Part shown: piece by piece, positions 6,625-58,615 of the stretch
Layout: each line of letters begins with the position of its first letter
Numbering within the stretch: the stretch's first letter is position 1
DNA from: Lentisphaerota bacterium
GTDB taxonomy: Bacteria > Verrucomicrobiota > Kiritimatiellia > UBA8416 > VGWI01
Reading direction: 5' to 3'
DNA length: 64,000 bases
NCBI GenBank assembly: GCA_016873655.1
Contig: VGWI01000005.1
Location: 1,455-65,454 of the forward strand
Notes under the pieces: generated by a model
Database searches by the model: none
What the model was told of the DNA's origin: nothing
Seen by the model: the letters and a program-made list of their open reading frames with translations, nothing else
Program-made: the position numbers and the translations under genes

Positions 6625-7146
6625 ATGATCAAGCTTGTTGTTGGTGCGGCTCTGGGTGCGGCAATTGGCGGATGGATAGGGTACGCAAGCAAGTGTTCCG
6701 GAGGGGGCTGTCCGCTCATGGGGAATCCGGCCGGTGGAGCGATGTTCGGGGCGGTGATCGGCATTCTTATGGCTTCGTCCATCGCAGGCAGAACATCCAC
6801 CAGTGCGGTGCATTCGGAGCATGTGATTGAGGTGGCGGGGGTCGAGGCGTTCGATGCGTTGTTGAAGGCCCACCCCGTCGCGCTCGTTGATTTCTACGCG
6901 GACTGGTGCGGGCCCTGCAGGAAACTGAAGCCGGCCATCCATGAACTGGCCGACACGTACGAGGGCCGGGCAGCCGTGCTTGCCGTTAATGTTGACCGGA
7001 ACAGGGAACTCGCGGAAAGACACGGTGTAAGCGGAATACCGGATGTACGCGTCTTCAAGGACGGACAGGAAAAGAAGCGCTTCGTCGGACTGGGGCCTAA
7101 GTCTCAGTACTCGTCCGCGATAGACAGCCTGCTGGCCGGAGAGTGA
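6625..7146 (+). CDS. membrane-anchored thioredoxin with an N-terminal glycine-zipper/CxGGxCP domain
   Basis: The C-terminal part has VDFYADWCGPCRKLKP (WCGPC active site). The N-terminal ~55 aa is Gly-rich and hydrophobic, with the motif CSGGGCPLMGNP. Confidence 0.85.
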   Translation: MIKLVVGAALGAAIGGWIGYASKCSGGGCPLMGNPAGGAMFGAVIGILMASSIAGRTSTSAVHSEHVIEVAGVEAFDALLKAHPVALVDFYADWCGPCRKLKPAIHELADTYEGRAAVLAVNVDRNRELAERHGVSGIPDVRVFKDGQEKKRFVGLGPKSQYSSAIDSLLAGE

Positions 7147-7150
7147 TGGC

Positions 7151-8914
7151 ATGAGGTCCGCGCGCAACCAAACGACCGGAGGCAGGGGGACCATGACGAA
7201 GGCGACTCTCGAGGAGAGATCGTCCGCCATAACCCTGTCCGACATGGAGATATTCATATTCCCCGACCTCATGTACTCGCTCGTGCTGGCGAACATCATG
7301 TCGCCCCGGGTCTGGCTCTGGCGCGATGATCCCTGGTTTGACGGGATAGAGCGCATGACGCCATACCGGCGCATAGTCCGGCTCAAGCAGTACCTTATGG
7401 ACCACTATGCCTTCAACCTGGACCTCGACACATGGGGCCTGACCACGAAACAGCGCGAGATCAGCCGCTTTGCCCCGTTCATCGATTCCGCCACCCTCGC
7501 CGAATCCAACGCTCTCTTCGGTTACGAGGGAGACAAGTACTACTTCGACATAGATATCCGGCGCCACTTCGGCCTGGACAAGTACGACACCGACACGATC
7601 CCTTACTGGAAGACGGAAACGGTCGAAGCCATGGACGCATTCCGCCACAGGCCCGGCTATTCGACCGGCGCGGGCGAATGCGTTTCTCTTTCCACTCTGT
7701 ACGCCGCGGCGCTCTTCATAGTCGCCCGGATACCCCTGAATGACATCTTCCTGCTCGCCACGCCGCTTCACTCGCAGAATTTCGTGGATGTTGACGACGG
7801 CGTCCTGACCAACAACCGCCGTATCGTGACCAAGAACATGTGGTTCAACGGGACAGCGCTCTCCGCACAGGCCCGGCGGGCGCTTGAGAACGAACGGGTC
7901 ACCGTGGTCGCCCACGAGTCCGGTCATGTCCACACGCTCTATCCTGAAGCCACGATGGACAGGGCCGCCTACAACCGGTTCAGCGCGAAGCTTTCCGGCT
8001 TCCTCGCAACCGATCTCACCGCAGACACCCTGGGCAACTTCCTGCGCCACAACACTTCCATACAGAAATGCTTCCAGGTCCGCTGGCCGAGGCACGGGGC
8101 CGATTCGTATATCGGCGTGGAACAGGTGCTGGCATACGAAAACTCGTGCCCTTACAGGCTGAGCGATCGCACGAGGCCGAAGCTGATGCAGGAGGTAGAG
8201 TCCGAGGAGTTCAGCCCCAACCCACTCGCTTCCCGCATCGTCCTGAACGATCTGGAGGATTTCCTCCGGACGGAGAAGATCAGCATCCTGGATGGGCCCG
8301 GAACCGCGCGGCTGAAGGAAAGGTTCGCGACAAGCTGCCTGAACGCGGAGATCGCAATAGAATCCCTGCGCCGGTTCTGCGTAACGCGCCCAAGGCTGCC
8401 TGATACGGCAGGGAAGACATTCGCCCCGTCATCAACCCCGCTGGGTCTGGACGTCGAAATGACGCGCGAGGAAGTGATCGAACGCCTTGGTTCGCTCAGA
8501 GACAGGTCCCGTACGGCGGACCTTTCCTTCTACGCATTCAGGGATGTGCTTTCCACGGACGCAGCCCCTTTTGTCACAGCGGCCTGCGCCCGTTCGCCGG
8601 TATCGCTCACGGCAACCGCCGACATGGACCTGCCGGATGTGCTGGAAAAACTGGCGCAGATGCCCGGAGATTCCATCTACGACGGCAAGGGCCGGTTGGC
8701 CCAGCCGGATGAAGTGTGGAACTTCGGCCGGGGTGACGGAGTTGAGAAGGCTCTCCTGCTGGCCAATATCCTTCACAACAGGCGGCCGGACGAGAAGGTC
8801 GGGATAACCTGCAACGGAAACAAAGTGCTGGTCTCATCCCCCGCCGGAGAATACCATTTCGAATGTGCAAAAGGGATAGTTGGCGCTGAATGGGTGGTGG
8901 AACCGAAAGTCTAG
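7151..8914 (+). CDS. hypothetical protein with a transglutaminase-like Cys-His core
   Basis: 587-aa ORF starting 4 nt after the thioredoxin stop; an alternative start is 7193. GAGECVSLSTLYAAALFIVARIP...TPLHSQNFVDVDDG resembles the papain/transglutaminase-like Cys...His...Asp arrangement. A second, Cys-less copy of the motif (GRGDGVEKALLLANIL) lies near the C-terminus. Confidence 0.6.
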   Translation: MRSARNQTTGGRGTMTKATLEERSSAITLSDMEIFIFPDLMYSLVLANIMSPRVWLWRDDPWFDGIERMTPYRRIVRLKQYLMDHYAFNLDLDTWGLTTKQREISRFAPFIDSATLAESNALFGYEGDKYYFDIDIRRHFGLDKYDTDTIPYWKTETVEAMDAFRHRPGYSTGAGECVSLSTLYAAALFIVARIPLNDIFLLATPLHSQNFVDVDDGVLTNNRRIVTKNMWFNGTALSAQARRALENERVTVVAHESGHVHTLYPEATMDRAAYNRFSAKLSGFLATDLTADTLGNFLRHNTSIQKCFQVRWPRHGADSYIGVEQVLAYENSCPYRLSDRTRPKLMQEVESEEFSPNPLASRIVLNDLEDFLRTEKISILDGPGTARLKERFATSCLNAEIAIESLRRFCVTRPRLPDTAGKTFAPSSTPLGLDVEMTREEVIERLGSLRDRSRTADLSFYAFRDVLSTDAAPFVTAACARSPVSLTATADMDLPDVLEKLAQMPGDSIYDGKGRLAQPDEVWNFGRGDGVEKALLLANILHNRRPDEKVGITCNGNKVLVSSPAGEYHFECAKGIVGAEWVVEPKV

Positions 8915-9139
8915 CGCACATTGTTCATGTTCTTCGTCGCGAGAGGGCGCAGGGTGCGTCAGATCAACGGCTTGCCGAAGAGGGCCGGATGGCGGCGTGT
9001 TGACACACGTCAAAGTCGGCCATCAAGGCAAGTCGCTGAGGTGGCGTATCATGTGCACTCGCAGCAGAAGGTTCATGAATAATGTGCGCCAGGACCGTAC
9101 GTCAGGCAAAGAAGAACACGACAGCAACAGGAGGGTAGT

Positions 9140-9502
9140 ATGGGAACTGCATCGGACCTGTGGTGGAAAATGAACAAGCAGACCGACGAAACCGGCGAGA
9201 CCGGCGAGAAACACACGCCCTATCTCACCGTTGAAGGCGATGCCAAACCCGGCAACGCCGTGAAGGTCACGGTTGACGTCGGACGCGGCAAACACCCCAA
9301 CGAGGCCGCACACAGCATCCAGTGGGTCGAACTGCGCGCGAACGATCTCTACATCGGAAGGGCCGAGTTCGCGGCCGGCATCACGAAGCCGATAGCGACG
9401 TTCACCGTCGTCGTCCCGGCCCAGGGCAGCATAGCGCTGACAGCCGTGGAGCGCTGCAACCTGCACGGGCTGTGGCAGAGCAATCCGCTCAAACTGGGTT
9501 GA
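9140..9502 (+). CDS. sor: superoxide reductase (1Fe-SOR / neelaredoxin type)
   Basis: Motifs GEKHTPYL, HPNEAAHSIQWVEL and CNLHGLW match the His4-Cys iron site of SORs. A GGAGGG Shine-Dalgarno lies 4 nt before the ATG. Confidence 0.85.
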   Translation: MGTASDLWWKMNKQTDETGETGEKHTPYLTVEGDAKPGNAVKVTVDVGRGKHPNEAAHSIQWVELRANDLYIGRAEFAAGITKPIATFTVVVPAQGSIALTAVERCNLHGLWQSNPLKLG

Positions 9503-9541: not shown

Positions 9542-11455
9542 TCATGCTTGCCCGGCCATCCTTCTTCTTATGCGCACGGCCACCCGTGGCAGAGACCTGG
9601 CGCCAGACAGAAAAAGCCTGACCGGTCTGACAAGGAAATACAGGAACGCCAGACATCCGGGCAGATTCACGGCCTTCCAGTCGCTGTAGCTCGGAAGAAT
9701 CGCCAGAAGGGACAAATGCCGTATCCGGTCCCTCAGCCGCTCCCGGATCGCAAGATGAAAACGCAGACTCCTGTCCCAGGTTGAGCCTGCCCCGGAAGGC
9801 TTTGCCATGCAGTGCAACACCCTCTCGGCAAGCAGCTCTGCTTCCGCGTCTCCGCCCGACGGCCATCCTTCAAGTCCAGGGACGCCGGCCACTCCAGCCG
9901 CCAGCACGAGCCCCGTACGCACGATGCGCTCACAACCGGCCGACCGCGCCTGCCGCAACACATGCTCGCCGTCAAGACGGTCGCGCCGCGACAGCAACCC
10001 GGCAACGTCCATCACCCACATTGCCCTGTCCCACTCGTGCTTCGCACCATGAATGCAGCATAGAAAGAGGTGGTCCTCAGGCGATAGCGACGGCAGTTCA
10101 CAACCGTCTATCATCACCTGACGACGGCGACGCCAGAAGACATCGAAGTCGGGAAACGGCATGAAGTGTCTCGACACAACTCCGCACGACAGCTCAACGC
10201 TCAAAGGACTGCGTTTCGACCGGAAAGACATTTCACCCGTAAGCCGCGCGTGAACGGGCATCCGTTCGGTCGGGAGACCCCCCTGCCAGACGTAGCCGCA
10301 GTCCTCCATCACTTTCCACGCGCGGCCCATCTCCCGCCGGTCAATGAGAATGTCAACGTCCCAGGAGTTGCGCAGGAACGGATCGCCGTACGCCGCGAGA
10401 GAAAGAACGGGACCCTTGAGCGGCAGACACCTTACCCCTTCTCCACCCAGCTTCGCGCAAATGGCGCCGGTTTCAGCCAGTATCGCCAGACTCCTCGCCT
10501 TCGCATGGAGGGCATCCACTCGAAGCGATTCTCTTGTTTCCGAAGGAACGGTCTTCCACGCATGCCGTCGGAGCCCATCGAGGAGTAACGGCTGAACCGC
10601 GTGACTTCTCGCAAGGCGTTCGACTTCACTCCAATCGGAAACCTGGATCTTCAGGTCATCGGCCCTTGCAGGGCTCACAACGCAGGCACAAGCATCAATC
10701 ACTGCGTCGAGTTCTCGACCCCAACGGCGCCAGCCCGGAATTCTCCCCGCCCCCGGATCGGCGCGGCCAGCCACACCGTGAAAGGGTGAATGCGGCGGGG
10801 CCAGGACCTCGAACGGAAAACTGCAGCGCCAGCGTCCATCTTCGGCCCGTTCCCATCCCACAACCCGCCGCCCTACCATGAGCTTCCGCGTTGAATTCGG
10901 CCCTTCCCCAAACCGGACAATACGTGGTCGGCGCCGAAAGAGCACTGCACGGCATACGCTGTCAGACAACGCAAGCGCACGAAACGTCCGCGTCACGGCA
11001 CGCAGGATACGGCAGACCGAACGCGCAGACACGGCCAGCAGGAGACCCGTCACCCCACCCGCCACCCGCTTCACTTCCTTTCCGCGCCAACGCTTCACCA
11101 CAAGCCCCAGCACCTGCGTTCGATCAAGCGTCCACGGGTCGGCGCCACAACAGGCGTCGCCGCGAGTGCAGAGCGACCCAGGAACCCCGCTGACGACCCT
11201 ATGAACCACTATTCCGCCGGAACCGGACGGCACGGCGGCCACGACATCGCCAACCCGCACTGGCTTGTCGGCGCACGGGATTACCTCAAGAAGGTCGCCT
11301 TCCCGCAAAACCGGGAACATGCTGTCACCGCGATGTACGCAAAAGAACGCGCCCGAAGGGTCCCCGGGATTGACGGCAAATAAACGCTCTCCCCCAGCCA
11401 CGCGGGAAAAAGACAACTGAACAGCGGAAGGCGGCCTGTATCCGCAGGCTTTCAC
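9542..11455 (-). CDS. fusion of a SipW-type (S26B-like) signal/leader peptidase domain with an uncharacterised nucleotidyltransferase (NTP_transf_5-like)
   Basis: The N-terminus has HRGDSMFPVLREGDLLEV...GIVVHRVV...TRGDAC..D, a Ser/His peptidase pattern. The C-terminal part has LKGPVLSLAAYGDPFLRNSWDVDILI, typical of the nucleotidyltransferase family seen in lasso/RiPP clusters. I chose the GTG at 11455, which overlaps the upstream stop (GTGA); the track start at 11533 would overlap by 82 nt. Confidence 0.7.
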   Translation of the reverse strand: MKACGYRPPSAVQLSFSRVAGGERLFAVNPGDPSGAFFCVHRGDSMFPVLREGDLLEVIPCADKPVRVGDVVAAVPSGSGGIVVHRVVSGVPGSLCTRGDACCGADPWTLDRTQVLGLVVKRWRGKEVKRVAGGVTGLLLAVSARSVCRILRAVTRTFRALALSDSVCRAVLFRRRPRIVRFGEGPNSTRKLMVGRRVVGWERAEDGRWRCSFPFEVLAPPHSPFHGVAGRADPGAGRIPGWRRWGRELDAVIDACACVVSPARADDLKIQVSDWSEVERLARSHAVQPLLLDGLRRHAWKTVPSETRESLRVDALHAKARSLAILAETGAICAKLGGEGVRCLPLKGPVLSLAAYGDPFLRNSWDVDILIDRREMGRAWKVMEDCGYVWQGGLPTERMPVHARLTGEMSFRSKRSPLSVELSCGVVSRHFMPFPDFDVFWRRRRQVMIDGCELPSLSPEDHLFLCCIHGAKHEWDRAMWVMDVAGLLSRRDRLDGEHVLRQARSAGCERIVRTGLVLAAGVAGVPGLEGWPSGGDAEAELLAERVLHCMAKPSGAGSTWDRSLRFHLAIRERLRDRIRHLSLLAILPSYSDWKAVNLPGCLAFLYFLVRPVRLFLSGARSLPRVAVRIRRRMAGQA

Positions 11456-12351
11456 CTGGAAGGCGTCCTGCTGATGGCTTGCTCGATGGCGCTCCAGAAT
11501 CTGTTTCGGAGAGTGACTCGGAGAGAGAAACAAGGCACAGCCGAGGCTATCGCCCGCGCGTTGTCCAGTAGCTGGAGCCTTATCCGCCTTGTCTCCGCCC
11601 CGCCCGGCGCCTCAATCGCATCCCAGGAAGCATCATACGCCCTGCCCAGAAGCTCAATGGATGCGTTCGACACCCCCACAGGAGCAACGCGGCGCGCCGA
11701 ATCCCGAGACATGAAGAACACCCCGGCAAGCCGCACACCATGCGACACGCGCCAGGCCGCATTCGACTCTCCCTTGAACAGACGGCTCCACGTCGGCCAC
11801 GGATGAGCCCAGTAACTCCCGTCCGGCGCCTTGACCACAAGCGCTGCGTCATCGCTCAAAGACCGCCACGGCGCTTTGAAACGCCTGCTGGCCGTTGTCT
11901 TGCCCATTCCGGAAACACCAGCGAGAATGACACCTCTTCCTCGCAACTCCGCAAGTGCGCCGTGAAGAAGCAGCCCCCCGGATTCTTCAGCATGGCGGGA
12001 GAACACGTAGGCAAGCGACATCGCCCGCCCGATGAGCTCTGGTTCCCCTTCGAACGCCTCAACATGGCATGTCAACCGTTCGGGACTCGGAGGCCGGCCC
12101 CTGCACGGAGCCGCGGACGCGAAAGGAATGTATACGCGGGGAGCCACCACGCGACACTGCCGACGGCCCGACAACCGGGAAACAGACGCCACGTCGAGCA
12201 GCAGATTCGCAGCCACGGAAGACCTCGGCCGCTCGCATCTCATTGTGCGGCACAGGCGCCCGACCAGCTGACCGGCAATGCCATCCGCCCCTTCAAGACG
12301 CCACACAGCGCCACTCTTGAGGCGCAAACACCGCCCGCTGGACAAACCCAT
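11452..12351 (-). CDS. HPr-kinase-related protein (ScmC-like)
   Basis: 299 aa. LHGALAELRGRGVILAGVSGMGKTTASRRF resembles the HprK/P P-loop region. It sits 27 nt downstream of the precursor gene. Confidence 0.7.
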   Translation of the reverse strand: MGLSSGRCLRLKSGAVWRLEGADGIAGQLVGRLCRTMRCERPRSSVAANLLLDVASVSRLSGRRQCRVVAPRVYIPFASAAPCRGRPPSPERLTCHVEAFEGEPELIGRAMSLAYVFSRHAEESGGLLLHGALAELRGRGVILAGVSGMGKTTASRRFKAPWRSLSDDAALVVKAPDGSYWAHPWPTWSRLFKGESNAAWRVSHGVRLAGVFFMSRDSARRVAPVGVSNASIELLGRAYDASWDAIEAPGGAETRRIRLQLLDNARAIASAVPCFSLRVTLRNRFWSAIEQAISRTPSR

Positions 12352-12378
12352 CTCGGCTTCCGTTCCGGCGGCCCCGGG

Positions 12379-12588
12379 TCAGCTTCCCTGGTTACCGGAC
12401 GCACAGGAACCGCTGGGAGGAACGTTGCCGCTCTTGCACTGGTTCACCTGCGGCGTGCTCCCGTTGCCACACACCTGCGAAACGCTGGTGCCATGACTGC
12501 ATTTCTGCATCACACCACGCCCGCTGGCCAGCCCACCCAGAGGCAGAACCGTCGGCTTCGCCCATTCCGGCTTCTGATTCTCTTTCAC
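12379..12588 (-). CDS. RiPP precursor peptide (69 aa, Cys/Gly/Ser/Asn-rich core)
   Basis: GTG start at 12588, preceded by AAGGGAGGA with a 6-nt spacer. Sequence: (M)KENQKPEWAKPTVLPLGGLASGRGVMQKCSHGTSVSQVCGNGSTPQVNQCKSGNVPPSGSCASGNQGS. It lies between the rSAM genes and the kinase-like gene. The track lists only a 111-aa version that overlaps the rSAM gene. Confidence 0.6.
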   Translation of the reverse strand: MKENQKPEWAKPTVLPLGGLASGRGVMQKCSHGTSVSQVCGNGSTPQVNQCKSGNVPPSGSCASGNQGS

Positions 12589-12625
12589 TGCTTGTCCTCC
12601 CTTGCTCAGGAACGTTCCTGCAGCT

Positions 12626-13717
12626 TCAAACCGTACCGCCAACACGGGTGCTCGGAAACAAGCCCTGCTCCTCTGCCTGCTCACAGAACCAGTAAGGCCC
12701 CCACATGCTGCCAAGCCTGTAATAATTCTGAGCCAGGCACGCCCCCAAGCATCTTGAATTCATGAGACAACGACCGCAGACGCCCTGCAGCCTCTGCGGC
12801 AACCCCGCGCGAATCTCGCCCAGAACGCGGCTTCCGCGCCATATTCCGCTTAGATTATCCTTCCCTGCCATTCCGAAAACAAGCTCTTTCACCTGCATTC
12901 CTATGCCGCACAAGGCGTAGTGGCCGGTGCTCAGAAGACCTAGTATCGTCAGTATCCCGCAACTTTCGTCTGATCTGGCGATCCGTCCCAGCGGACGGAA
13001 TGCCTGCGGAATGTCGAAGTGGAGCGACATCCTGGTCCTGGCGGCCAGATCCGAATCAACGATCCGCCCCGCGGCAACAAGCTCCTCTACGCCCGGCAAC
13101 GCATTGGCCCGACCAAGATCAGCCCCGCGCGCTGTCGGCTCAACCATGTTGAACCTAACGGACCCGGCGCCAAGCCGCTCAGCCATCCTTACCACCGCCT
13201 CGATCTGGCCCATGTTCTCGCGCACAAGAGTCATCACAACCTGGGGCGCCAGCCCCGCTTCCGACAGGTTCCTGACCGCACGGCAAGCCTTGTCGAATGA
13301 CCCGGCAATGCCCCTCAGCCACTCGTGCGTGGCGGCGTCTGCCCCGTCAATGCTCACCGACACAAACGGCCTTGGCGCTCCGGCGATCAGCCTGGCCGTC
13401 TCAGGAGTGCATAGAAGACCGTTTGTCTCGACCTGCACGGATACTCCAGCCTTCGACGCTATCTCGACAAGATCGCCGAACCGAGGGTGAAGCAGCGGCT
13501 CGCCACCGGTGAACTTGACCGACGACAGGCCCAAAGGCTTGGCTTCACGAACCACCCCCTCAAACACGTCCACGGGGAGAACGGCATGCCCGCTGCCGTC
13601 AGCATCGAACTTGGGCGCCAGCCAGCAGTGCCTGCACGCAAGGTTGCACCCTTCCGTGAGGTAACAGTAGATCGTCCCGAGCGGCGGCACGCTGCCGTCT
13701 TCAACGGCATCACTCAT
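12626..13717 (-). CDS. radical SAM/SPASM-domain peptide maturase
   Basis: CNLACRHC (CxxxCxxC) near the N-terminus. The C-terminus has Cys-rich SPASM motifs (CGILT...ALCG, CGRCLMNSRCLGAC). Its start overlaps the upstream rSAM stop by ATGA. Confidence 0.9.
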   Translation of the reverse strand: MSDAVEDGSVPPLGTIYCYLTEGCNLACRHCWLAPKFDADGSGHAVLPVDVFEGVVREAKPLGLSSVKFTGGEPLLHPRFGDLVEIASKAGVSVQVETNGLLCTPETARLIAGAPRPFVSVSIDGADAATHEWLRGIAGSFDKACRAVRNLSEAGLAPQVVMTLVRENMGQIEAVVRMAERLGAGSVRFNMVEPTARGADLGRANALPGVEELVAAGRIVDSDLAARTRMSLHFDIPQAFRPLGRIARSDESCGILTILGLLSTGHYALCGIGMQVKELVFGMAGKDNLSGIWRGSRVLGEIRAGLPQRLQGVCGRCLMNSRCLGACLAQNYYRLGSMWGPYWFCEQAEEQGLFPSTRVGGTV

Positions 13718-14850
13718 GGTATATCCTCCGGCCTTCCGCCTGAATCAAGGAAGCGCCTGAGACAGCCGTCGGGACTCGGCGCATTCACCCGCCGGCTCTG
13801 CGTGTAAGCCATGGCAGGACAGCTGCCCGTGCAGTACGGAGAATAGAGACACGCGCGGCAGTACTCGAAATCCTTCAACTCTATTGAAGATCTCGACCTC
13901 AATTCGGCGAGCACCGGACTGTTATTCCAGACCGCTTCGAGCGAATCTTTGTTGATTCTCCCCATCTCCATGTGCGCGAGCAGCACACAGGGGATAATTA
14001 CGCCGTCGGCACGGACAGCACATGTTGTGAAATGGCAACCGCACCCGGTCAGCCTCCCGCCGTCATCAAAGGTCCCGGCCCCGCATCCGGCGGCATCCAG
14101 CATCTTCCTCCACGTCAGGGCATCGGCAAGAGGCCCGGCATTGGCCAGAACCCTGCCCGGATACCGGCCCGCAATTCTCACAAGCGCCTGCATCGCCTCG
14201 GCGTGGAGAGCGGGATCAAGAAGCAGTTCGTCGGCGTGCCGCCGGCATGTTCCGATATACCCCGCGGAATTGGTCCCGAATCTCGCCAGCCCAAGATCTT
14301 CGAGAAGAAACCGCGCCGTCTCTTCCAGATGGCCGACGTTGTGACGACTGATGGTCACGCGCACGCCAACCGGAATGCTGTGCGACTGAAGACGTTTGAG
14401 CCCGGCAATCGCGGCATCGAAACTGCCCCGGCCCCGGGTCGCGTCATGGATCCTGGCGCATGGGCCATCCACGGAAACCTGCACCTGGTCACACCTGTTG
14501 GTCCGCGCAATGAACGCAGCCATGGAGTCGTCTATAAGCGTTCCGTTGCTCAGAACCGCAAAACGCATCCTGTTCTCAACCACCCCGCTGATGACTTCCC
14601 GAAGGTCGCCGCGCATGAAGGGCTCGCCGCCCTGGAGCGTCACCCGCATGACCCCGCAGCGGCCCAGCTCCTCAAAGAAACTCAACCATTCCCCGAGTGG
14701 AAGATCGTGATAGGGCACTTCGGGATTGTCGAAGAAGTAGCAGTAGCTGCATCGCTGGTTGCATGCGGCTGTTATCTCTACGTCAACGTACCTGGGGGTG
14801 CGTATCACGCGCATCCCATGCGCCGACCCCCCTTTTTCTCCATCGGACAT
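13714..14850 (-). CDS. radical SAM/SPASM-domain peptide maturase (second copy)
   Basis: CNQRCSYC cluster and C-terminal SPASM cysteines (GCGCHFTTC...PC, YCRACLYSPYCTGSCP). The ATG at 14850 is 2 nt after the PqqD-like stop. I rejected the 503-aa track version because it overlaps the PqqD-like gene. Confidence 0.9.
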   Translation of the reverse strand: MSDGEKGGSAHGMRVIRTPRYVDVEITAACNQRCSYCYFFDNPEVPYHDLPLGEWLSFFEELGRCGVMRVTLQGGEPFMRGDLREVISGVVENRMRFAVLSNGTLIDDSMAAFIARTNRCDQVQVSVDGPCARIHDATRGRGSFDAAIAGLKRLQSHSIPVGVRVTISRHNVGHLEETARFLLEDLGLARFGTNSAGYIGTCRRHADELLLDPALHAEAMQALVRIAGRYPGRVLANAGPLADALTWRKMLDAAGCGAGTFDDGGRLTGCGCHFTTCAVRADGVIIPCVLLAHMEMGRINKDSLEAVWNNSPVLAELRSRSSIELKDFEYCRACLYSPYCTGSCPAMAYTQSRRVNAPSPDGCLRRFLDSGGRPEDIP

Positions 14851-14852
14851 GT

Positions 14853-15143
14853 CTACCCCTCGGCACCCTCGGCGACGCCGAAGAAACCGTCGCGCGCGAG
14901 TTCGTCTGCGAAAGACAGCACTTCGCCGGACGCACCCTCCGGCACGTTGCTGAAACGCCGGGCAACGGTGGCGGCTATGTCCCTCAAGGAACGCGTGCCG
15001 TCGGCCTGCTTCCAGATCTCGACCCCAACCGGGTTGGTCCCGACCGCGGCGCTGGTGTCGGGATTGAACAGAATCGCCCAGTCGTCGGATTCCTCCCTGA
15101 GCACTACCACGGGGTTCGGCACGGGCGCGTCGTCGAGTTTCAT
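14853..15143 (-). CDS. PqqD-family peptide chaperone (RiPP recognition element, ScmD-like)
   Basis: 96 aa. ...ILFNPDTSAAVGTNPVGVEIWKQADGTRSLRDIAATVARRF......EVLSFADELARDGF is the typical PqqD/RRE pattern. It is the first gene of the minus-strand operon. Confidence 0.8.
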   Translation of the reverse strand: MKLDDAPVPNPVVVLREESDDWAILFNPDTSAAVGTNPVGVEIWKQADGTRSLRDIAATVARRFSNVPEGASGEVLSFADELARDGFFGVAEGAEG

Positions 15144-15390
15144 CGTCGGGCCTCTTACGCTGATTTGGACTCAAATCTGCACATTTCGCGTCTTCCATTG
15201 TCTCAACGGCATTTCGCTCTTGCAAGGCACTAATGCCGCCCTACCCTTGTGCAATGAACGGCGCGGCACAAGCATCCTGTCGGGAACCTGTCTCTCGCGG
15301 CAGCCATCTCTGCAGAAAGGTCTGAACTTGGCTATACCTCCACGAGGCGTGGGCTCACGCGGCGGTAGGGCCCGTTCAACGGACGACCCA

Positions 15391-17181
15391 GTGAAGGCGC
15401 CCGAACTCTTTCGCCGCCTCACACGCACCATCATGCTGGTCTGGAGGGCGGCGCCCGGATGGACGGCCTGCAACTCGGTTCTGCTTCTTGTTCAAGGCAT
15501 CCTGCCGCTCCTTACCCTCTACCTGATCAAACGCATCACCGACACAATCACAGCCGCTGCCACATCAGGCGGCGCGGATGTGCGTCAATCGGCAATTCTG
15601 ATCGCCGCCGCGGCGGGTGCGGCGCTGTTCGGCGCAATGTGCGCAAGCCTCGGCAGACTGGTCACCGAAATGCAGGCGCAGACGGTAACGGACTACGTTC
15701 TCGACCTCCTGCACGCCAAATCGCTTGAGACGGACCTGGAGTACTACGAGACCCCGTCATACTACGACACTCTCCACATGGCTCAGATGGAGGCGCCGTA
15801 CCGCCCTCCCATGATCGTCAACAACCTCGTCCAGGTCGTCCGAGGCGGCATATCACTGACAGCGGTCGCAGGGCTTCTGTTCGCGTTCCACTGGGGGCTG
15901 ACGCTTATCCTCGTGTCCGTGGCGCTGCCGGGCATGGTCTTTCGTTTCCGCCAGTCGAAAGACCTGTTCCGATGGCACCGCCGGAGAACCCCGACGGAAC
16001 GGAAGGCGAATTACTACAGTTGGATGATGACAACCGACGCGCACGCGAAGGAAAACCGCCTGCTGGGGCTCGCCGACATTCTCCGGGACCGCTTCATGGA
16101 ACTGCGCCTGGTTATGCGCGGCGAACAGCGCTCGCTGGCCGCCCGCCGGGCAGGCCGGGAACTGCTTGCGCAGACGGCTTCAATCCTCGCGGGCTTCGGA
16201 GTGCTTCTGTCCATGGCCGCAAGGGCCATCAAGGGAAGCATCACCCCCGGCCATCTCGTCATGCTCTACATGGCCTTTCAACGCGGACAGGGGTTCATGT
16301 CGGAAATGACGAACGGGCTCGTGTCGCTGTACGAAAACAGCCTCTTCATCAGTTCCTTCTACACGTTCCTGGACGTGAAACCGCGCGTTTCAGAATCGCC
16401 TTCGCCCGTTGCCGCTCCGTCGCTCAGAAAGAGCGAGATCCGTTTCGAGTCGGTGAGCTTCTCATACCCGGGGAGCGACCGGCCGGCCATTGAGAACGTT
16501 TCTTTCGCAATCCGCCCCGGTTCGCGCGTGGCACTGGTGGGTGAGAACGGGGCCGGCAAGACGACCCTCGTGAAACTGCTCTGCCGGCTCTACGACCCGT
16601 CCGGCGGCCTGATTACGGTCGGCGGCACGGACCTCCGCGACCTGCGCACGCCGGAATGGCGCTCAGGCATCGGGATACTGTTCCAGGATTACGCACGCTA
16701 CCAGCTCAGCGCGCGCGAAAACGTCTGGCTCGGGAACGTCGCCCTGCCGCCCGACGACATCCGCCTGCACTCGGCGGCGGCAGCCTCGGGCGCGGACGAA
16801 GTGATCCGCTCGCTTCGCGACGGCTACGACACGCAGCTCGGCAAATGGTTCGAAAACGGCGAGGAACTCAGCGTCGGCCAGTGGCAGAAAATCGCGCTGG
16901 CACGGTGCTTCGCGCGAGACGCGGACCTCTTCATCCTCGACGAGCCGACAAGCGCGCTGGACGCGCAAGCCGAGAACGAGGTGCTGGAAGCGTTCCGCAG
17001 GCTGGCGGCGGGGAGAACGGTGATCACGATCAGCCACAGACTCTCAACGGCGCGGTGTGCGGACCTGATAGTCGTGCTGGACAACGGCCGCATAGTCGAG
17101 CAGGGAGCGCACGACGAGCTGATGTCCTCGAACGGGGTCTACGCACGGCTGTTCAATCTCCAGGCCCATAACTACGCCTGA
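15391..17181 (+). CDS. ABC exporter, fused permease/ATPase (MsbA/MdlB type), no C39 peptidase domain
   Basis: Six-TM N-terminal half. Walker A GENGAGKTTL, signature LSVGQWQKIALAR, Walker B LFILDEPTSALD. The start is GTG 15391 or ATG 15433. The track fuses it to an antisense artefact (13972-17181). Confidence 0.85.
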   Translation: MKAPELFRRLTRTIMLVWRAAPGWTACNSVLLLVQGILPLLTLYLIKRITDTITAAATSGGADVRQSAILIAAAAGAALFGAMCASLGRLVTEMQAQTVTDYVLDLLHAKSLETDLEYYETPSYYDTLHMAQMEAPYRPPMIVNNLVQVVRGGISLTAVAGLLFAFHWGLTLILVSVALPGMVFRFRQSKDLFRWHRRRTPTERKANYYSWMMTTDAHAKENRLLGLADILRDRFMELRLVMRGEQRSLAARRAGRELLAQTASILAGFGVLLSMAARAIKGSITPGHLVMLYMAFQRGQGFMSEMTNGLVSLYENSLFISSFYTFLDVKPRVSESPSPVAAPSLRKSEIRFESVSFSYPGSDRPAIENVSFAIRPGSRVALVGENGAGKTTLVKLLCRLYDPSGGLITVGGTDLRDLRTPEWRSGIGILFQDYARYQLSARENVWLGNVALPPDDIRLHSAAAASGADEVIRSLRDGYDTQLGKWFENGEELSVGQWQKIALARCFARDADLFILDEPTSALDAQAENEVLEAFRRLAAGRTVITISHRLSTARCADLIVVLDNGRIVEQGAHDELMSSNGVYARLFNLQAHNYA

Positions 17182-17204: not shown

Positions 17205-17672
17205 TCATGGCCCGGCGGGCCGCACGCCGAGGACTTCCGCAAGCACCGCCGGATCGTTCCTGAACGGGGAGCCGCGCCCTTCATAGAATCCGTGCGCCTC
17301 TATCATGTGAACGGACAGGTCCGTGAACACGATCTCCCGGCCTGACTTCACGTTCCGGACAATCGTGTTCACCTTCTCGAACACGCCGTCGTGGAACGGG
17401 CAGGGTATCTTGCCACGCACGCCGGCTATCCTCACCACGTGGTCAGGCGGCACATCCACTTCTTCGCCCAGCCCGCTCTTTCCGGCCTCGCGGAGTTCCC
17501 TCATGCGGTCGGCAATCCCCTGATGGGTCAACCCGAGCCGCCGCACGGCCGCGTCGTCGTCGGACAGTATGTCCGCAAGCCTCCGCTGGTCGGCGCCGAG
17601 AAACCCGGCGGCGGATATACGCCCGGGCGCCATCTCGGCCTGCACACTGTCCATCTCCGGCGTCTGCTTCAT
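17205..17672 (-). CDS. hypothetical protein, sixth gene of the Rnf/Nqr-like operon
   Basis: 155-aa ORF beginning 22 nt after the NqrF-like stop. It contains a CPFHDG motif. I recognise no family. Confidence 0.55.
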   Translation of the reverse strand: MKQTPEMDSVQAEMAPGRISAAGFLGADQRRLADILSDDDAAVRRLGLTHQGIADRMRELREAGKSGLGEEVDVPPDHVVRIAGVRGKIPCPFHDGVFEKVNTIVRNVKSGREIVFTDLSVHMIEAHGFYEGRGSPFRNDPAVLAEVLGVRPAGP

Positions 17673-17694: not shown

Positions 17695-18795
17695 TCACGA
17701 GAACTTGTCGTAGAATATCCTGTCCTCGGGCATGCCCTTCTTCTTCAGCAACTCAACGCAGGCGTCTATCATCAACGGGCTGCCGCAGAGATACGCCTCT
17801 TTCTCGGACACATCACCGGCGCGACGGCCGACGACGTCGGTCACAAGACCGGTCTCGCCGCTCCATTCATCGCCGCCCTCCGGCGCGGCAAGAGAGGGTA
17901 TGAACCTGAACGACGGCATCTCGCGCTCAATCCGCTGCATCAGATCCTCCAGGAACAGGTCTTCCCGAGACCGCGCCCCGAAGTAGTACTCCGCGTTGCG
18001 ACGGCAGCCCGTGCGGGCCATCTCGAGCAGCATTGACTTGATGGGCGCCATCCCTGACCCGCCGGCAATGAAGATCACGTCGCGCCCGGTGTCGGAAAGC
18101 CGGAAGTCGCCGTATGGTCCGTTTATGTTCACCCTTTCGCCGACCTTCAAGTGCCTGTGCACGTAAGTGGTGCAGATGCCGTTCGGCACGTAGCGGATCT
18201 CCAGCTCGATCGCGCCCCGGTCAACCGGGTCGGACGATATGGAGTAGGCCCTGTAGACAGGCTCGTCGGTGAGCTTGTATGCAGGCACTTCGAACTGCAC
18301 GTACTGACCCGCCTTGAACGTCATCGCGCCCGGCTCGATCAGCTTCAGCCGCACTTCCTTGATATCGTGTGTAAGGTCCGCGATCGATGCCACCTCCACT
18401 TCGTACTGGGCAACGGACAGCAGTTCTTCGGGAATCCGGATTGCCAGGTCGCCCTTCACCTTCACCTGGCACGCAAGCCGGACGCCGCCCTTCACTTCAT
18501 CCTTCGAAAGCCACGGCAGCTCAGTGGCAAGGGGCTCTCCGCCGCCTTCCACCCGCACCTTGCACAACCCGCAGGAGCCGCGCCCGCCGCAGGCGGACGG
18601 TATGAAAATGCCGCTGTCCTTCAGCGTGGACAGAAGCGACCGCCCGCCCGCCGCCTTCACTTCGCGGTCCCCGTTCACGCGGACAGTGCATTCCCCGTAG
18701 TCGCCGACTGTCGCGCCGGCAAAAAGGATCAGGCCGGTGAGGACCAGGTTGATCGCCACCGCCACGCCGACCGCCAACAGGAAAGCCCCGAGCAT
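17695..18795 (-). CDS. NqrF-like subunit (TM helix + 2Fe-2S ferredoxin + FAD/NAD(P)H reductase)
   Basis: N-terminal TM helix, ACGGRGSCGLCKV...RLACQV (plant-type 2Fe-2S), RAYSIS (FAD), GGSGMAP (NAD). Confidence 0.85.
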   Translation of the reverse strand: MLGAFLLAVGVAVAINLVLTGLILFAGATVGDYGECTVRVNGDREVKAAGGRSLLSTLKDSGIFIPSACGGRGSCGLCKVRVEGGGEPLATELPWLSKDEVKGGVRLACQVKVKGDLAIRIPEELLSVAQYEVEVASIADLTHDIKEVRLKLIEPGAMTFKAGQYVQFEVPAYKLTDEPVYRAYSISSDPVDRGAIELEIRYVPNGICTTYVHRHLKVGERVNINGPYGDFRLSDTGRDVIFIAGGSGMAPIKSMLLEMARTGCRRNAEYYFGARSREDLFLEDLMQRIEREMPSFRFIPSLAAPEGGDEWSGETGLVTDVVGRRAGDVSEKEAYLCGSPLMIDACVELLKKKGMPEDRIFYDKFS

Positions 18796-18836: not shown

Positions 18837-19430
18837 TCAGTTAAGCCGCATCATGCCGTTGAAACCCATGAACGCCAGCGCCATTATGCCCGCGATCACC
18901 AGCGCGAGCCCCGCGCCCTCCATGCCCTTCGGAACACGAGAGCCGCCGATCCTCTGGCGGATTCCCGCCATCGCAAGTATCGCCACGGCCCAGCCCACGC
19001 CGCTCCCCGCACCGTATGCGAGGGATTCGAGAAACGTGTATGACCTGATGACCATGAAAAGGCTCACCCCGAGAATGGCGCAGTTGACCGTTATGAGCGG
19101 CAGGAATATCCCGAGCGCCGCATAGAGCGTGTCGGAAACGCGCTCGATAACCATCTCCACGATCTGAACGAAGGCCGCGATGACCACGATGAAGACAATG
19201 AACCGCAGGTACTCGAGCCCCAGCGGCGCCAGCACGAAGGAGTACACAAGCCAGTTGAGGACGCTCGTGGCAGTCATCACGACAACAACCGCCGCCCCAA
19301 GTCCCATCGATGTCTTCACCTCGCGCGATACGCCGAGAAACGAGCACATTCCGAGGTAGTTCGTGAGAAGTATGTTGTTCGTGAACACCGCCGCGAAAAA
19401 CACGGCAAATGCATGTCCCATGGAGTTCAC
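18837..19430 (-). CDS. RnfA/NqrE-family membrane subunit
   Basis: Polytopic. NNILLTNYLGMCSFLGVS and LPLITVNCAILG are typical of RnfA/NqrE. GTG 19430 overlaps the upstream stop (GTGA); an alternative ATG is at 19421. Confidence 0.85.
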   Translation of the reverse strand: MNSMGHAFAVFFAAVFTNNILLTNYLGMCSFLGVSREVKTSMGLGAAVVVVMTATSVLNWLVYSFVLAPLGLEYLRFIVFIVVIAAFVQIVEMVIERVSDTLYAALGIFLPLITVNCAILGVSLFMVIRSYTFLESLAYGAGSGVGWAVAILAMAGIRQRIGGSRVPKGMEGAGLALVIAGIMALAFMGFNGMMRLN

Positions 19431-20050
19431 CGCGCACCTGCCTTCCCCGCATCCGCCGGCGCGGAATCGAGCCACACGCCTTTCACGATCCATATGAAGA
19501 CGGCCAGCATGAAGAAGGCGCCTGGCGCGGTCACCATGATGGACCAGTTGACCCATCCGTCTCCAAGCACCCTGACACCCCAGATCGTGCCCGAGCCCAG
19601 CAGCTCGCGGAAGAACGCGATGACCAGCAGAACATACGAGTAACCGACGCCGGAGGAGACTCCGTCGGCCAGCGCCGCGCCAGGCGGATTGGTCAGGGCA
19701 AAGGCCTCTGCCCTGCCCATGACTATGCAGTTGGTTATGATCAGGCCGACATACGGGCCGAGCTGGCGCGCTATGTCCGGAACGAACGCCCTCAATGCAA
19801 TGTCAACGACGATGACGTAAGAGGCTATCACCAGCACCTCCACCATCATTCTCACTCGGCCCGGAATCAGCCTGCGCATCGCGGAAACAGTCACGTTCGA
19901 CAGCGCCAGGGTGAAGATAAGCCCCAGGCACATGACCGCCGTGTTCTTGAGCACATTGGTGACTGCCAGCGTGGAGCAGATGCCGAGTATCTGCGCGAAT
20001 ACCGGGTTGTCCCGGCCAAGGTTGCGCAGAACTATCTTCCCGGTTTTCAA
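19427..20050 (-). CDS. RnfE/NqrD-family membrane subunit
   Basis: NPVFAQILGICSTLAVT and GLIITNCIVMGRAEAFA are typical of RnfE/NqrD. The start appears to be TTG at 20050, 1 nt after the upstream stop. Confidence 0.85.
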   Translation of the reverse strand: MKTGKIVLRNLGRDNPVFAQILGICSTLAVTNVLKNTAVMCLGLIFTLALSNVTVSAMRRLIPGRVRMMVEVLVIASYVIVVDIALRAFVPDIARQLGPYVGLIITNCIVMGRAEAFALTNPPGAALADGVSSGVGYSYVLLVIAFFRELLGSGTIWGVRVLGDGWVNWSIMVTAPGAFFMLAVFIWIVKGVWLDSAPADAGKAGAR

Positions 20051-27171: not shown

Positions 27172-27246
<75 letters not shown>

Positions 27247-58524: not shown

Positions 58525-58615
58525 GGAGAGGTGACCGAGTGGCCGATGGTGCAGCACTGGAAATGCTGTGTACCCCTAAAGGGTACCGCGGGTTCAAATC
58601 CCGCCCTCTCCGCCA
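58525..58615 (+). tRNA. tRNA-Ser (anticodon GGA)
   Basis: GGAGAGGTGACCGAGTGGCCGATGGTGCAGCACTGGAAATGCTGTGTACCCCTAAAGGGTACCGCGGGTTCAAATCCCGCCCTCTCCGCCA. A class II tRNA with a long variable arm, anticodon loop CTGGAAA, and an encoded CCA. Confidence 0.9.

Follow-up and report, generated by a model that had tools for sequence, protein, structure and literature searches.

What would a bacterium make from a peptide of 69 residues with two radical S-adenosylmethionine (SAM) enzymes, a kinase-like protein and a signal-peptidase-like domain fused to a nucleotidyltransferase? This question is raised by a seven-gene locus of a Lentisphaerota bacterium (GenBank assembly GCA_016873655.1, contig VGWI01000005.1), which lies in a stretch of 64,000 nucleotides that was analysed whole and is called the window here. 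An earlier note, written from the letters of this DNA, had taken the locus for a SynChlorMet (Scm) type of cassette for a peptide that is synthesized by the ribosome and modified after translation (RiPP), and the open reading frame (ORF) map and family scans recover all seven genes where that note had placed them. Our analysis makes it probable that this is a functional Scm cassette for biosynthesis, with the ScmA-like peptide of 69 aa as its substrate. The features of the locus are as follows.

14853..15143, minus strand: ScmD, PqqD-family protein of the RiPP recognition element (RRE) type, 96 aa (TIGR04248 best match; PF05402)
13714..14850, minus strand: ScmE, radical SAM/SPASM maturase, 378 aa (TIGR04250; Radical_SAM and SPASM Pfam domains)
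12626..13717, minus strand: ScmF, second radical SAM/SPASM maturase, 363 aa (TIGR04251)
12379..12588, minus strand: predicted ScmA-like precursor peptide, 69 aa (ribosome-binding site, homologues, cassette conservation, synonymous changes)
11452..12351, minus strand: ScmC, P-loop protein resembling HPr kinase and phosphoenolpyruvate carboxykinase (PEPCK), 299 aa (TIGR04249, PF27840)
9542..11455, minus strand: peptidase::NTP_transf_5 fusion (Pep::NT), 637 aa (PF14907; S26B boxes)
15144..15390, no strand: intergenic spacer separating the divergently oriented scmD and ABC genes, putative promoter region (GC content, position)
15391..17181, plus strand: ATP-binding cassette (ABC) exporter with permease and ATPase in one chain, 596 aa (MsbA/HlyB-like exporter models, PF00005)

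The proposed SynChlorMet identity stands, as the Scm models match strongly and three of them exceed their NCBIfam trusted cutoffs. ScmE matches TIGR04250 over its full length with 497.8 bits (cutoff 400, E=1.5e-149), ScmF matches TIGR04251 with 478.1 bits (cutoff 400, E=1.9e-143) and ScmC, already described in the earlier note as HPr-kinase-like, matches TIGR04249 with 145.7 bits (cutoff 125); PF27840 (ScmC) is, in addition, the precomputed Pfam family of an identical protein, P0001. For the PqqD-like gene the ScmD model is the top match, below its cutoff, and the general PqqD family PF05402 matches with 48 bits (cutoff 23). The ScmE translation carries the motif CNQRCSYC and a Cys-rich C-terminus, while ScmF carries CNLACRHC, a Radical_SAM domain by Pfam and a C-terminus whose seven Cys have a SPASM-like arrangement. 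Two features of sactipeptide and ranthipeptide pathways are present, namely a CxxxCxxC radical SAM motif with a SPASM-type C-terminus in ScmE and ScmF, and a discrete PqqD-family RRE in ScmD. Judged by these models and by the alignments described below, the genes belong to the ScmC, ScmE, ScmF and, probably, ScmD families, and the catalytic motifs of the peptidase, of the P-loop protein and of the nucleotidyltransferase are kept.

ScmD, ScmE, ScmF, the peptide and ScmC are encoded in this order on one strand, with overlaps or with gaps of at most 37 nt. The earlier description of the minus-strand genes as nearly all joined by 4-nt overlaps or very short gaps needs correction in detail. Overlaps of 4 nt occur at two junctions only, E/F (ATGA) and ScmC/Pep::NT (GTGA, provided that translation begins at the GTG at 11455); D and E are separated by a 2-nt gap, and the peptide gene by 37 nt from scmF and 27 nt from scmC. 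The spacer of 247 bp, which had been called visibly AT-richer, does have a lower GC content than the window, though the effect is mild (0.583 against a mean of 0.637; pieces of 247 bp have an sd of 0.038, and the spacer stands at their 9th percentile). AAGAGG stands 8 nt upstream of the scmD ATG. The start of the divergent exporter gene is ambiguous (GTG 15391 or ATG 15433), and family scans of its product detect no peptidase domain of the C39 type. No second cassette or second precursor was found within the 64-kb window.

The precursor peptide and its relatives

The 69-aa Cys-rich peptide noticed earlier is encoded by a gene with a GTG start and a strong ribosome-binding site (AAGGGAGGA, 6 nt upstream), and the JGI annotation likewise has a 69-aa gene at this position. 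Its leader spans approximately residues 1-26 (nt 12511-12588) and closes with G-R-G, at the end of ...PEWAKPTVLPLGGLASGRG. The core comprises residues 27-69 (nt 12382-12510) and holds the four Cys, at positions 30, 40, 51 and 62, in the segments C30SHG, C40GNG, C51KSG and C62ASG, spaced 10, 11 and 11 residues apart. When 1.84 billion representative proteins were searched exhaustively with phmmer, 10 homologous peptides, 64-90 aa in length, were recovered (E 5e-20 to 9e-4). In the alignment of these homologues P12, L17 and G18 of the leader are invariant, as are C30, G33, C40, N42, G43, C51 and G54 of the core, with C62 and G65 conserved in at least 90%.

The genomic setting of such peptides was followed through ScmC, whose relatives form at least 1151 homologous protein clusters at E≤1e-3 and occur in at least 158 GTDB species genomes; 80 loci were fetched among these species. 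In the nearest of them the peptide keeps its place, so that the check proposed in the earlier note, for a similar peptide gene in the same slot of homologous cassettes, comes out in its favor. In locus L082 the peptide is encoded directly upstream of ScmC, and L083 and L084 share the order D (97 aa), E (379), F (384), A (76), C (310) and Pep::NT (630), which is identical to that of the window. Against the L083 peptide, 51 of 69 aligned residues are identical, 24 of the 51 by different codons, and 18 are changed. Identity to L083 amounts to 78% in the peptide core, compared with 50% in ScmC and 39% in Pep::NT, and the peptide is therefore under stronger constraint than its enzymes. Taken together, these comparisons show the 69-aa gene to be real, under purifying selection, and a homologue of precursors that accompany the Scm enzymes in bacteria and archaea.

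The homology to ScmA is transitive. A hidden Markov model of alignment A2, the A2 profile, was searched against all six-frame ORFs of the 80 loci and reaches canonical cassette peptides (E=1.6e-14 to 1e-7), some of which match the NCBIfam ScmA model TIGR04252 weakly. By this chain of profile matches, the 69-aa ORF is a divergent ScmA-type precursor. The start of PqqA reads W-K-K-P-x4-L-x-L-G, and the window leader contains a similar W-A-K-P-x4-L-G. This likeness suggests a shared leader logic for binding PqqD-type proteins.

The cassette family and its leader peptidase

The surveyed loci come from Thermodesulfobacteriota, Chloroflexota, Acidobacteriota, Lentisphaerota, Verrucomicrobiota, WOR-3, Brocadiaceae and the archaea Methanothrix and Methanoregula. 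A peptide matching the A2 profile lies on the cassette strand in 62 of the 80 loci, and in all 32 loci that are well flanked, with at least 5 kb upstream and at least 4.5 kb downstream of scmC. The same 32 loci contain ScmD in 31 cases, ScmE and ScmF in 29 each, an S26-like peptidase in 28, an ABC gene in 24 and an NTP_transf_5 gene in 22. On these counts eight parts, not five, make up the conserved cassette: A, D, E, F, the S26B peptidase, C, ABC and the nucleotidyltransferase (NT). Most often they are arranged as A-D-E-F-Pep-C-ABC-NT; in 31 loci the peptidase and ScmC form one Pep::ScmC protein, and the nucleotidyltransferase is a separate gene in most cassettes. The window represents a sub-architecture, with the peptide gene between scmF and scmC and a Pep::NT fusion, that is common to its nearest relatives.

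Across the family the leader follows the motif K-Y-E-x-P-x3-P-L-G, succeeded by a G-x-G junction. Numbered from the aromatic residue as position 0, conservation is 99% for Y0 (W in the subclade of the window), 76% for E1, 100% for P3, 96% for L8 and 80% for G9. At the junction between leader and core, G or A occupies +14 in 88% and +16 in 96% of cases (equivalent to -3 and -1), and the first Cys follows at +18 or +19. The core consists of 3-10 tandem C-x-x-G repeats of 10-11 residues, with a Cys-Cys spacing of 10 in 138 cases and of 11 in 75. Gly stands at +3 of the Cys in 83% of the repeats; elsewhere the repeats vary and abound in the small residues S, T, A and G.

Two generously flanked loci of Anaerolineae, L023 (8920-12641) and L066 (3246-7263), have the order D-A-C-Pep-NT, and no ORF of at least 200 aa with CxxxCxxC was found in their flanks. 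Their peptides bear the leader, have no C-x-x-G repeats, and end in PGF[S/T]W. With two loci, which probably record one evolutionary event, this is suggestive of a tie between the Cys repeats and the radical SAM pair. It is likewise suggestive, from the same two loci, that the D/C/Pep/NT module can work without that pair and without Cys repeats, and these loci may represent a distinct variant of the system that is independent of radical SAM enzymes.

Other loci depart from the common pattern in their own ways. In two ORFs an ScmA-like leader runs into a long low-complexity stretch, made of poly-Gly blocks ahead of the Cys repeats in L072 (5919-6638) and of GT/GN/DRDW repeats with a single Cys in L060 (14307-14780); these may be genuine variants, artefacts of assembly or decayed genes. 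In L057 an ScmA-like ORF and scmC (8931-9206 and 9656-10543) are each broken by an in-frame stop, with no radical SAM genes nearby, and this locus looks like a decaying cassette. Several genomes (loci L020, L039, L068, L076, L001 and L079) have at least two sets of Scm-like genes, or additional peptides resembling ScmA, within 20 kb; among them, some sets lie on opposite strands and some include more distant ScmE/F paralogues at approximately 280-310 bits.

The earlier note had also described an S26-like peptidase fused to a nucleotidyltransferase, and both halves are supported, the first by S26B boxes and the second by a 181-bit match to PF14907. The peptidase domain covers approximately nt 11036-11353, with Ser45, His85 and Asp100/Asp106. 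Among 65 cassette peptidase domains G-x-S-M-x-P, V-H-R, T-x-G-D and D are invariant; where the family box reads GDNN, the window protein has GDAC. A profile of these domains matches human SEC11C (E=4.8e-12) and SEC11A (both at approximately 1e-11 to 1e-12), and since the Ser, His and GDNN..D boxes align with SEC11, the cassette enzyme is a homologue of the ER/archaeal-type (S26B) Ser/His signal peptidases and not of the bacterial Ser/Lys type. TIGR02228 scores 28.6 bits on the window fusion, under its cutoff of 51.85. Besides these boxes, which it shares with S26B signal peptidase I (Sec11, archaeal SPase, SipW), the system shares a small-x-small presumed cleavage site. It differs in that the peptidase is joined to cytoplasmic enzymes, in that its gene belongs to a RiPP operon, and in that no N-terminal hydrophobic anchor is apparent by eye in the window protein.

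Type I signal peptidases follow a -3/-1 rule of small residues, and the conserved small-x-small motif before the first Cys fits this rule, which makes it the presumed cleavage site. A 2023 review of RiPP leader proteases makes no mention of signal peptidase, S26, Sec11 or SipW. A word-indexed search with Pep::NT returned 8 proteins, and conservation of the fusion was assessed with the L083 locus, where it is full-length at 39% identity; the two domains are likewise fused in L084. The stored gene call for the window protein (P0131, 592 aa) starts at Met46, right after the catalytic Ser of G-D-S-M, and this annotation consequently omits the active site of the peptidase. A start at the GTG at 11455, within the overlap with the scmC stop, yields the full 637 aa, and the JGI call on an identical contig uses this overlapping GTG.

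Predicted maturation steps and competing explanations

In the mechanism that we propose, ScmD would bind the leader through W/Y-x-x-P-x3-P-L-G, and ScmE and ScmF would cross-link the peptide intramolecularly through its four regularly spaced Cys, most likely as thioethers. The rings might be small and unnested, each within one repeat and, speculatively, closed onto the C-alpha of the conserved Gly; small unnested sactionine rings of 4 residues are known from streptosactin (PMC9389541). One of the two enzymes may install a second, different modification. The Sec11-type Ser/His peptidase domain would then cut the leader off after G-R-G26, ScmC would phosphorylate the peptide with ATP, and the fused NTP_transf_5 domain would add a glycosyl or nucleotidyl group, as happens in phospho-glycosylated lasso peptides. 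The divergent ABC transporter would export the product. From the SPASM enzymes and the conserved Cys, a product with multiple thioethers is a reasonable inference.

Several observations weigh against this reading. The ScmD match, at 85.1 bits, lies under the TIGR04248 cutoff of 100, and TIGR04252 (cutoff 35 bits) does not match the window peptide even at E≤1. A promoter scan detected no sigma-70-like site; no terminator signal was detected, and terminator-like sites are no commoner than in shuffled sequence. In the repeats, no acceptor residue is conserved besides Cys and Gly, and the type and position of the cross-links are accordingly guesses. The use of two dissimilar radical SAM enzymes on one peptide is not accounted for by thioether formation alone. 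The nucleotidyltransferase domain of the window is without the E-x-H-W motif found in most cassette NT proteins, and a C-terminal Ser, the target of the lasso kinases, is not conserved across the ScmA family. With regard to the second of these points, TIGR04252 at E≤1 matches 19 of the 64 peptides from cassettes, the best of them at 8e-7, and the model appears to be too narrow, rather than the window peptide unrelated.

The last two points concern ScmC and the nucleotidyltransferase. In ScmC, G150, K151, T153, D167, D168 and H183 are invariant, and the family profile aligns to the HPr kinase/phosphorylase (HPrK/P) structure 1ko7 (E=0.002) across LHG, the P-loop GxGKT and DD. The AlphaFold2 model of ScmC has a pLDDT of 83, and its best Foldseek matches in the PDB are PEP carboxykinases (TM approximately 0.45), not HPrK/P; the same search gives no clue on the N-terminal domain. 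HPrK/P and PEPCK have a common P-loop fold, and the structural matches of the model are thus consistent with an HPrK-like ScmC. The nucleotidyltransferase domain (nt 9896-10639; PF14907 cutoff 31 bits) keeps LKG and D366-x-D368, a pol-beta-type G..DxD signature. In lasso peptide pathways, the precursor receives a phosphate on its C-terminal Ser from an HPr-kinase homologue, and a nucleotidyltransferase, in several cases one protein with the leader protease B2, attaches one or two hexoses to this phosphate, as in pseudomycoidin (PMC8498205; PMC7533575). The window peptide does end in a Ser (Ser69), with S, T, R, Q or D at this place in close relatives. We considered the C-terminal Ser as a general target of ScmC and rejected it, as the last residue varies across 70 ScmA-like peptides (G 12, A 8, T 7, P 7, S 5, and others). 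The Pep::ScmC and Pep::NT fusions nevertheless bring the domains together in one chain, and we therefore argue that the peptidase, ScmC and nucleotidyltransferase activities would meet on the same substrate.

The fusions can also be understood differently. ScmC and NTP_transf_5 might together be an ATP-dependent module that assists the leader peptidase, with a part in handling the substrate, in gating or regulation, or in self-immunity, so that the product would bear the radical SAM modifications only. We regard this explanation as doubtful, yet as one that retains real weight. It would suit the fusion of the peptidase to ScmC in 31 loci and to NT in the window, the absence of a conserved Ser/Thr target or C-terminal Ser in the family and the lost E-x-H-W of the window domain, whereas the conserved Walker A, DD and DxD catalytic motifs, the demonstrated phospho-glycosylation of lasso peptides by the same enzyme pair and the separate NT gene of most cassettes favor a modifying role.

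A further alternative retains both the cassette and its substrate and changes the radical chemistry: ScmE and ScmF would not make thioethers but C-C or C-O cross-links, epimerised residues or oxidised Cys, and the Cys would serve as metal ligands or disulfide partners. This we consider unlikely. After their own models, both enzymes score best, at 100-140 bits, against chemically heterogeneous families (WgkB, MftC, AhbD, GeoRSP and PapB; also NirJ and PqqE), and their relatives of solved structure (SkfB, BlsE, CteB, PqqE, SuiB and anSME) are distant, with a best E of 1e-17 over the N-terminal domain only. The reaction type is for these reasons unreadable from homology, and a reading of ScmE/ScmF chemistry from the solved structures was rejected because the relatives are too distant. 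Such diversity leaves room for other chemistry, and two very different enzymes suggest two reactions. Thioethers remain the better account of the peptide itself: Cys is the sole side chain conserved in every repeat, the aromatic, Lys or Glu partners that C-C and C-O cross-linkers use are not conserved alongside it, and the loci that have no radical SAM genes have no Cys repeats either.

That the 69-aa ORF is not the substrate at all, but a chance ORF or an unrelated small protein, with the substrate encoded elsewhere or the cassette decayed, is highly improbable: the silence of TIGR04252 and the position of the precursor upstream of scmD in many cassettes are met by a strong ribosome-binding site, by homologues in the same slot of the closest cassettes, by profile links (E down to 1.6e-14) to canonical ScmA peptides, some of which in turn match TIGR04252, by substitutions against relatives that are rich in synonymous changes and by the lack of a second candidate peptide within the window.

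Known systems and the genomic surroundings

The cassette family, including the concept of ScmA, is already known computationally, and the window locus is a new, divergent member of it rather than a new kind. Like the SynChlorMet system defined in NCBIfam (TIGR04248-TIGR04252; PF27840), the window has ScmC, ScmE, ScmF, a probable ScmD and a Cys-repeat precursor co-linear in one operon. It differs in its precursor, which has a W-type leader (PEWAKP, not KYExP) and a conserved 4-Cys core and is encoded between scmF and scmC, not at the operon start; in its peptidase, which is fused to the nucleotidyltransferase and not to ScmC; in its divergent ABC gene; and in its ScmC, whose nearest relative is only 50% identical.

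With the sactipeptides and ranthipeptides (subtilosin/AlbA, freyrasin/PapB and, of the type-2 sactipeptides, streptosactin/GggB) the system shares the PqqD-type RRE, the radical SAM/SPASM enzymes, a core of Cys donors and an ABC exporter. The freyrasin precursor acted on by PapB has a repeated C-x3-D motif, and the window peptide is likewise built on a tandem repeated Cys motif. Unlike these systems, Scm cassettes encode two non-orthologous radical SAM enzymes per peptide, conserve Gly at +3 with no acceptor side chain, and add kinase-like, nucleotidyltransferase and S26B peptidase genes; the thioethers of Scm products are, moreover, predicted. Lasso peptide clusters (paeninodin PadeK; pseudomycoidin PsmK/PsmN) are similar in combining an HPr-kinase homologue, an uncharacterised nucleotidyltransferase and a PqqD-like RRE, in the occasional fusion of the nucleotidyltransferase to the leader protease, and in a peptide that ends in Ser, as that of the window does. 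The window has neither a lasso cyclase nor a B2 transglutaminase-type protease, its protease is of the S26B type, and the C-terminal Ser is not a family trait.

A search of open-access papers and preprints found no publication on the SynChlorMet cassette or its product, in agreement with the earlier statement that no product structure or function has been published; ScmE and ScmF occur as words, as unrelated acronyms. The cassette is widespread, yet without a product, a chemistry or a role in the searched literature, and the current ScmA model misses most precursors. The window locus and its relatives are a handle for experiment, as they offer a short, highly conserved 4-Cys substrate, defined enzymes, a predicted cleavage site and a testable link to lasso phospho-glycosylation. 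Much more speculatively, and with little confidence, we raise the idea that Scm products constitute a structurally new RiPP class: 3-10 tandem modules of 10-11 residues, each with a small C-x-x-G ring (S-C(alpha) bonds to Gly being the simplest), a second radical SAM modification, the first dedicated Sec11-type (S26B) RiPP leader peptidase and a phosphate-linked sugar or nucleotide added by ScmC and NTP_transf_5. The producers would be anaerobic bacteria of hundreds of lineages, together with archaea of the Methanothrix type.

The surroundings of the cassette comprise genes of other kinds. On the left, a thioredoxin gene with an N-terminal DUF6132 membrane segment (6625-7146) is directly followed by a 587-aa ORF without Pfam match (7151-8914, plus strand). 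On the right, a 155-aa ORF without Pfam matches (17205-17672, minus strand) lies between the ABC exporter gene and an NqrF/Rnf block. The sole RNA genes of the window by Rfam and ARAGORN are tRNA-Gly(CCC) (27172-27246, minus strand) and tRNA-Ser(GGA) (58525-58615, plus strand). A gene of the desulfoferrodoxin family, resembling superoxide reductase (9140-9502, plus strand), converges on Pep::NT at approximately 40 nt from its stop, and no terminator-like hairpin was detected between the two. The NqrF/Rnf block consists of an NqrF-like gene with Fer2, FAD and NAD binding domains (17695-18795) and of genes for Rnf/Nqr membrane subunits (18837-20050). The desulfoferrodoxin gene and the Rnf/Nqr subunit genes suggest that the host is an anaerobe.

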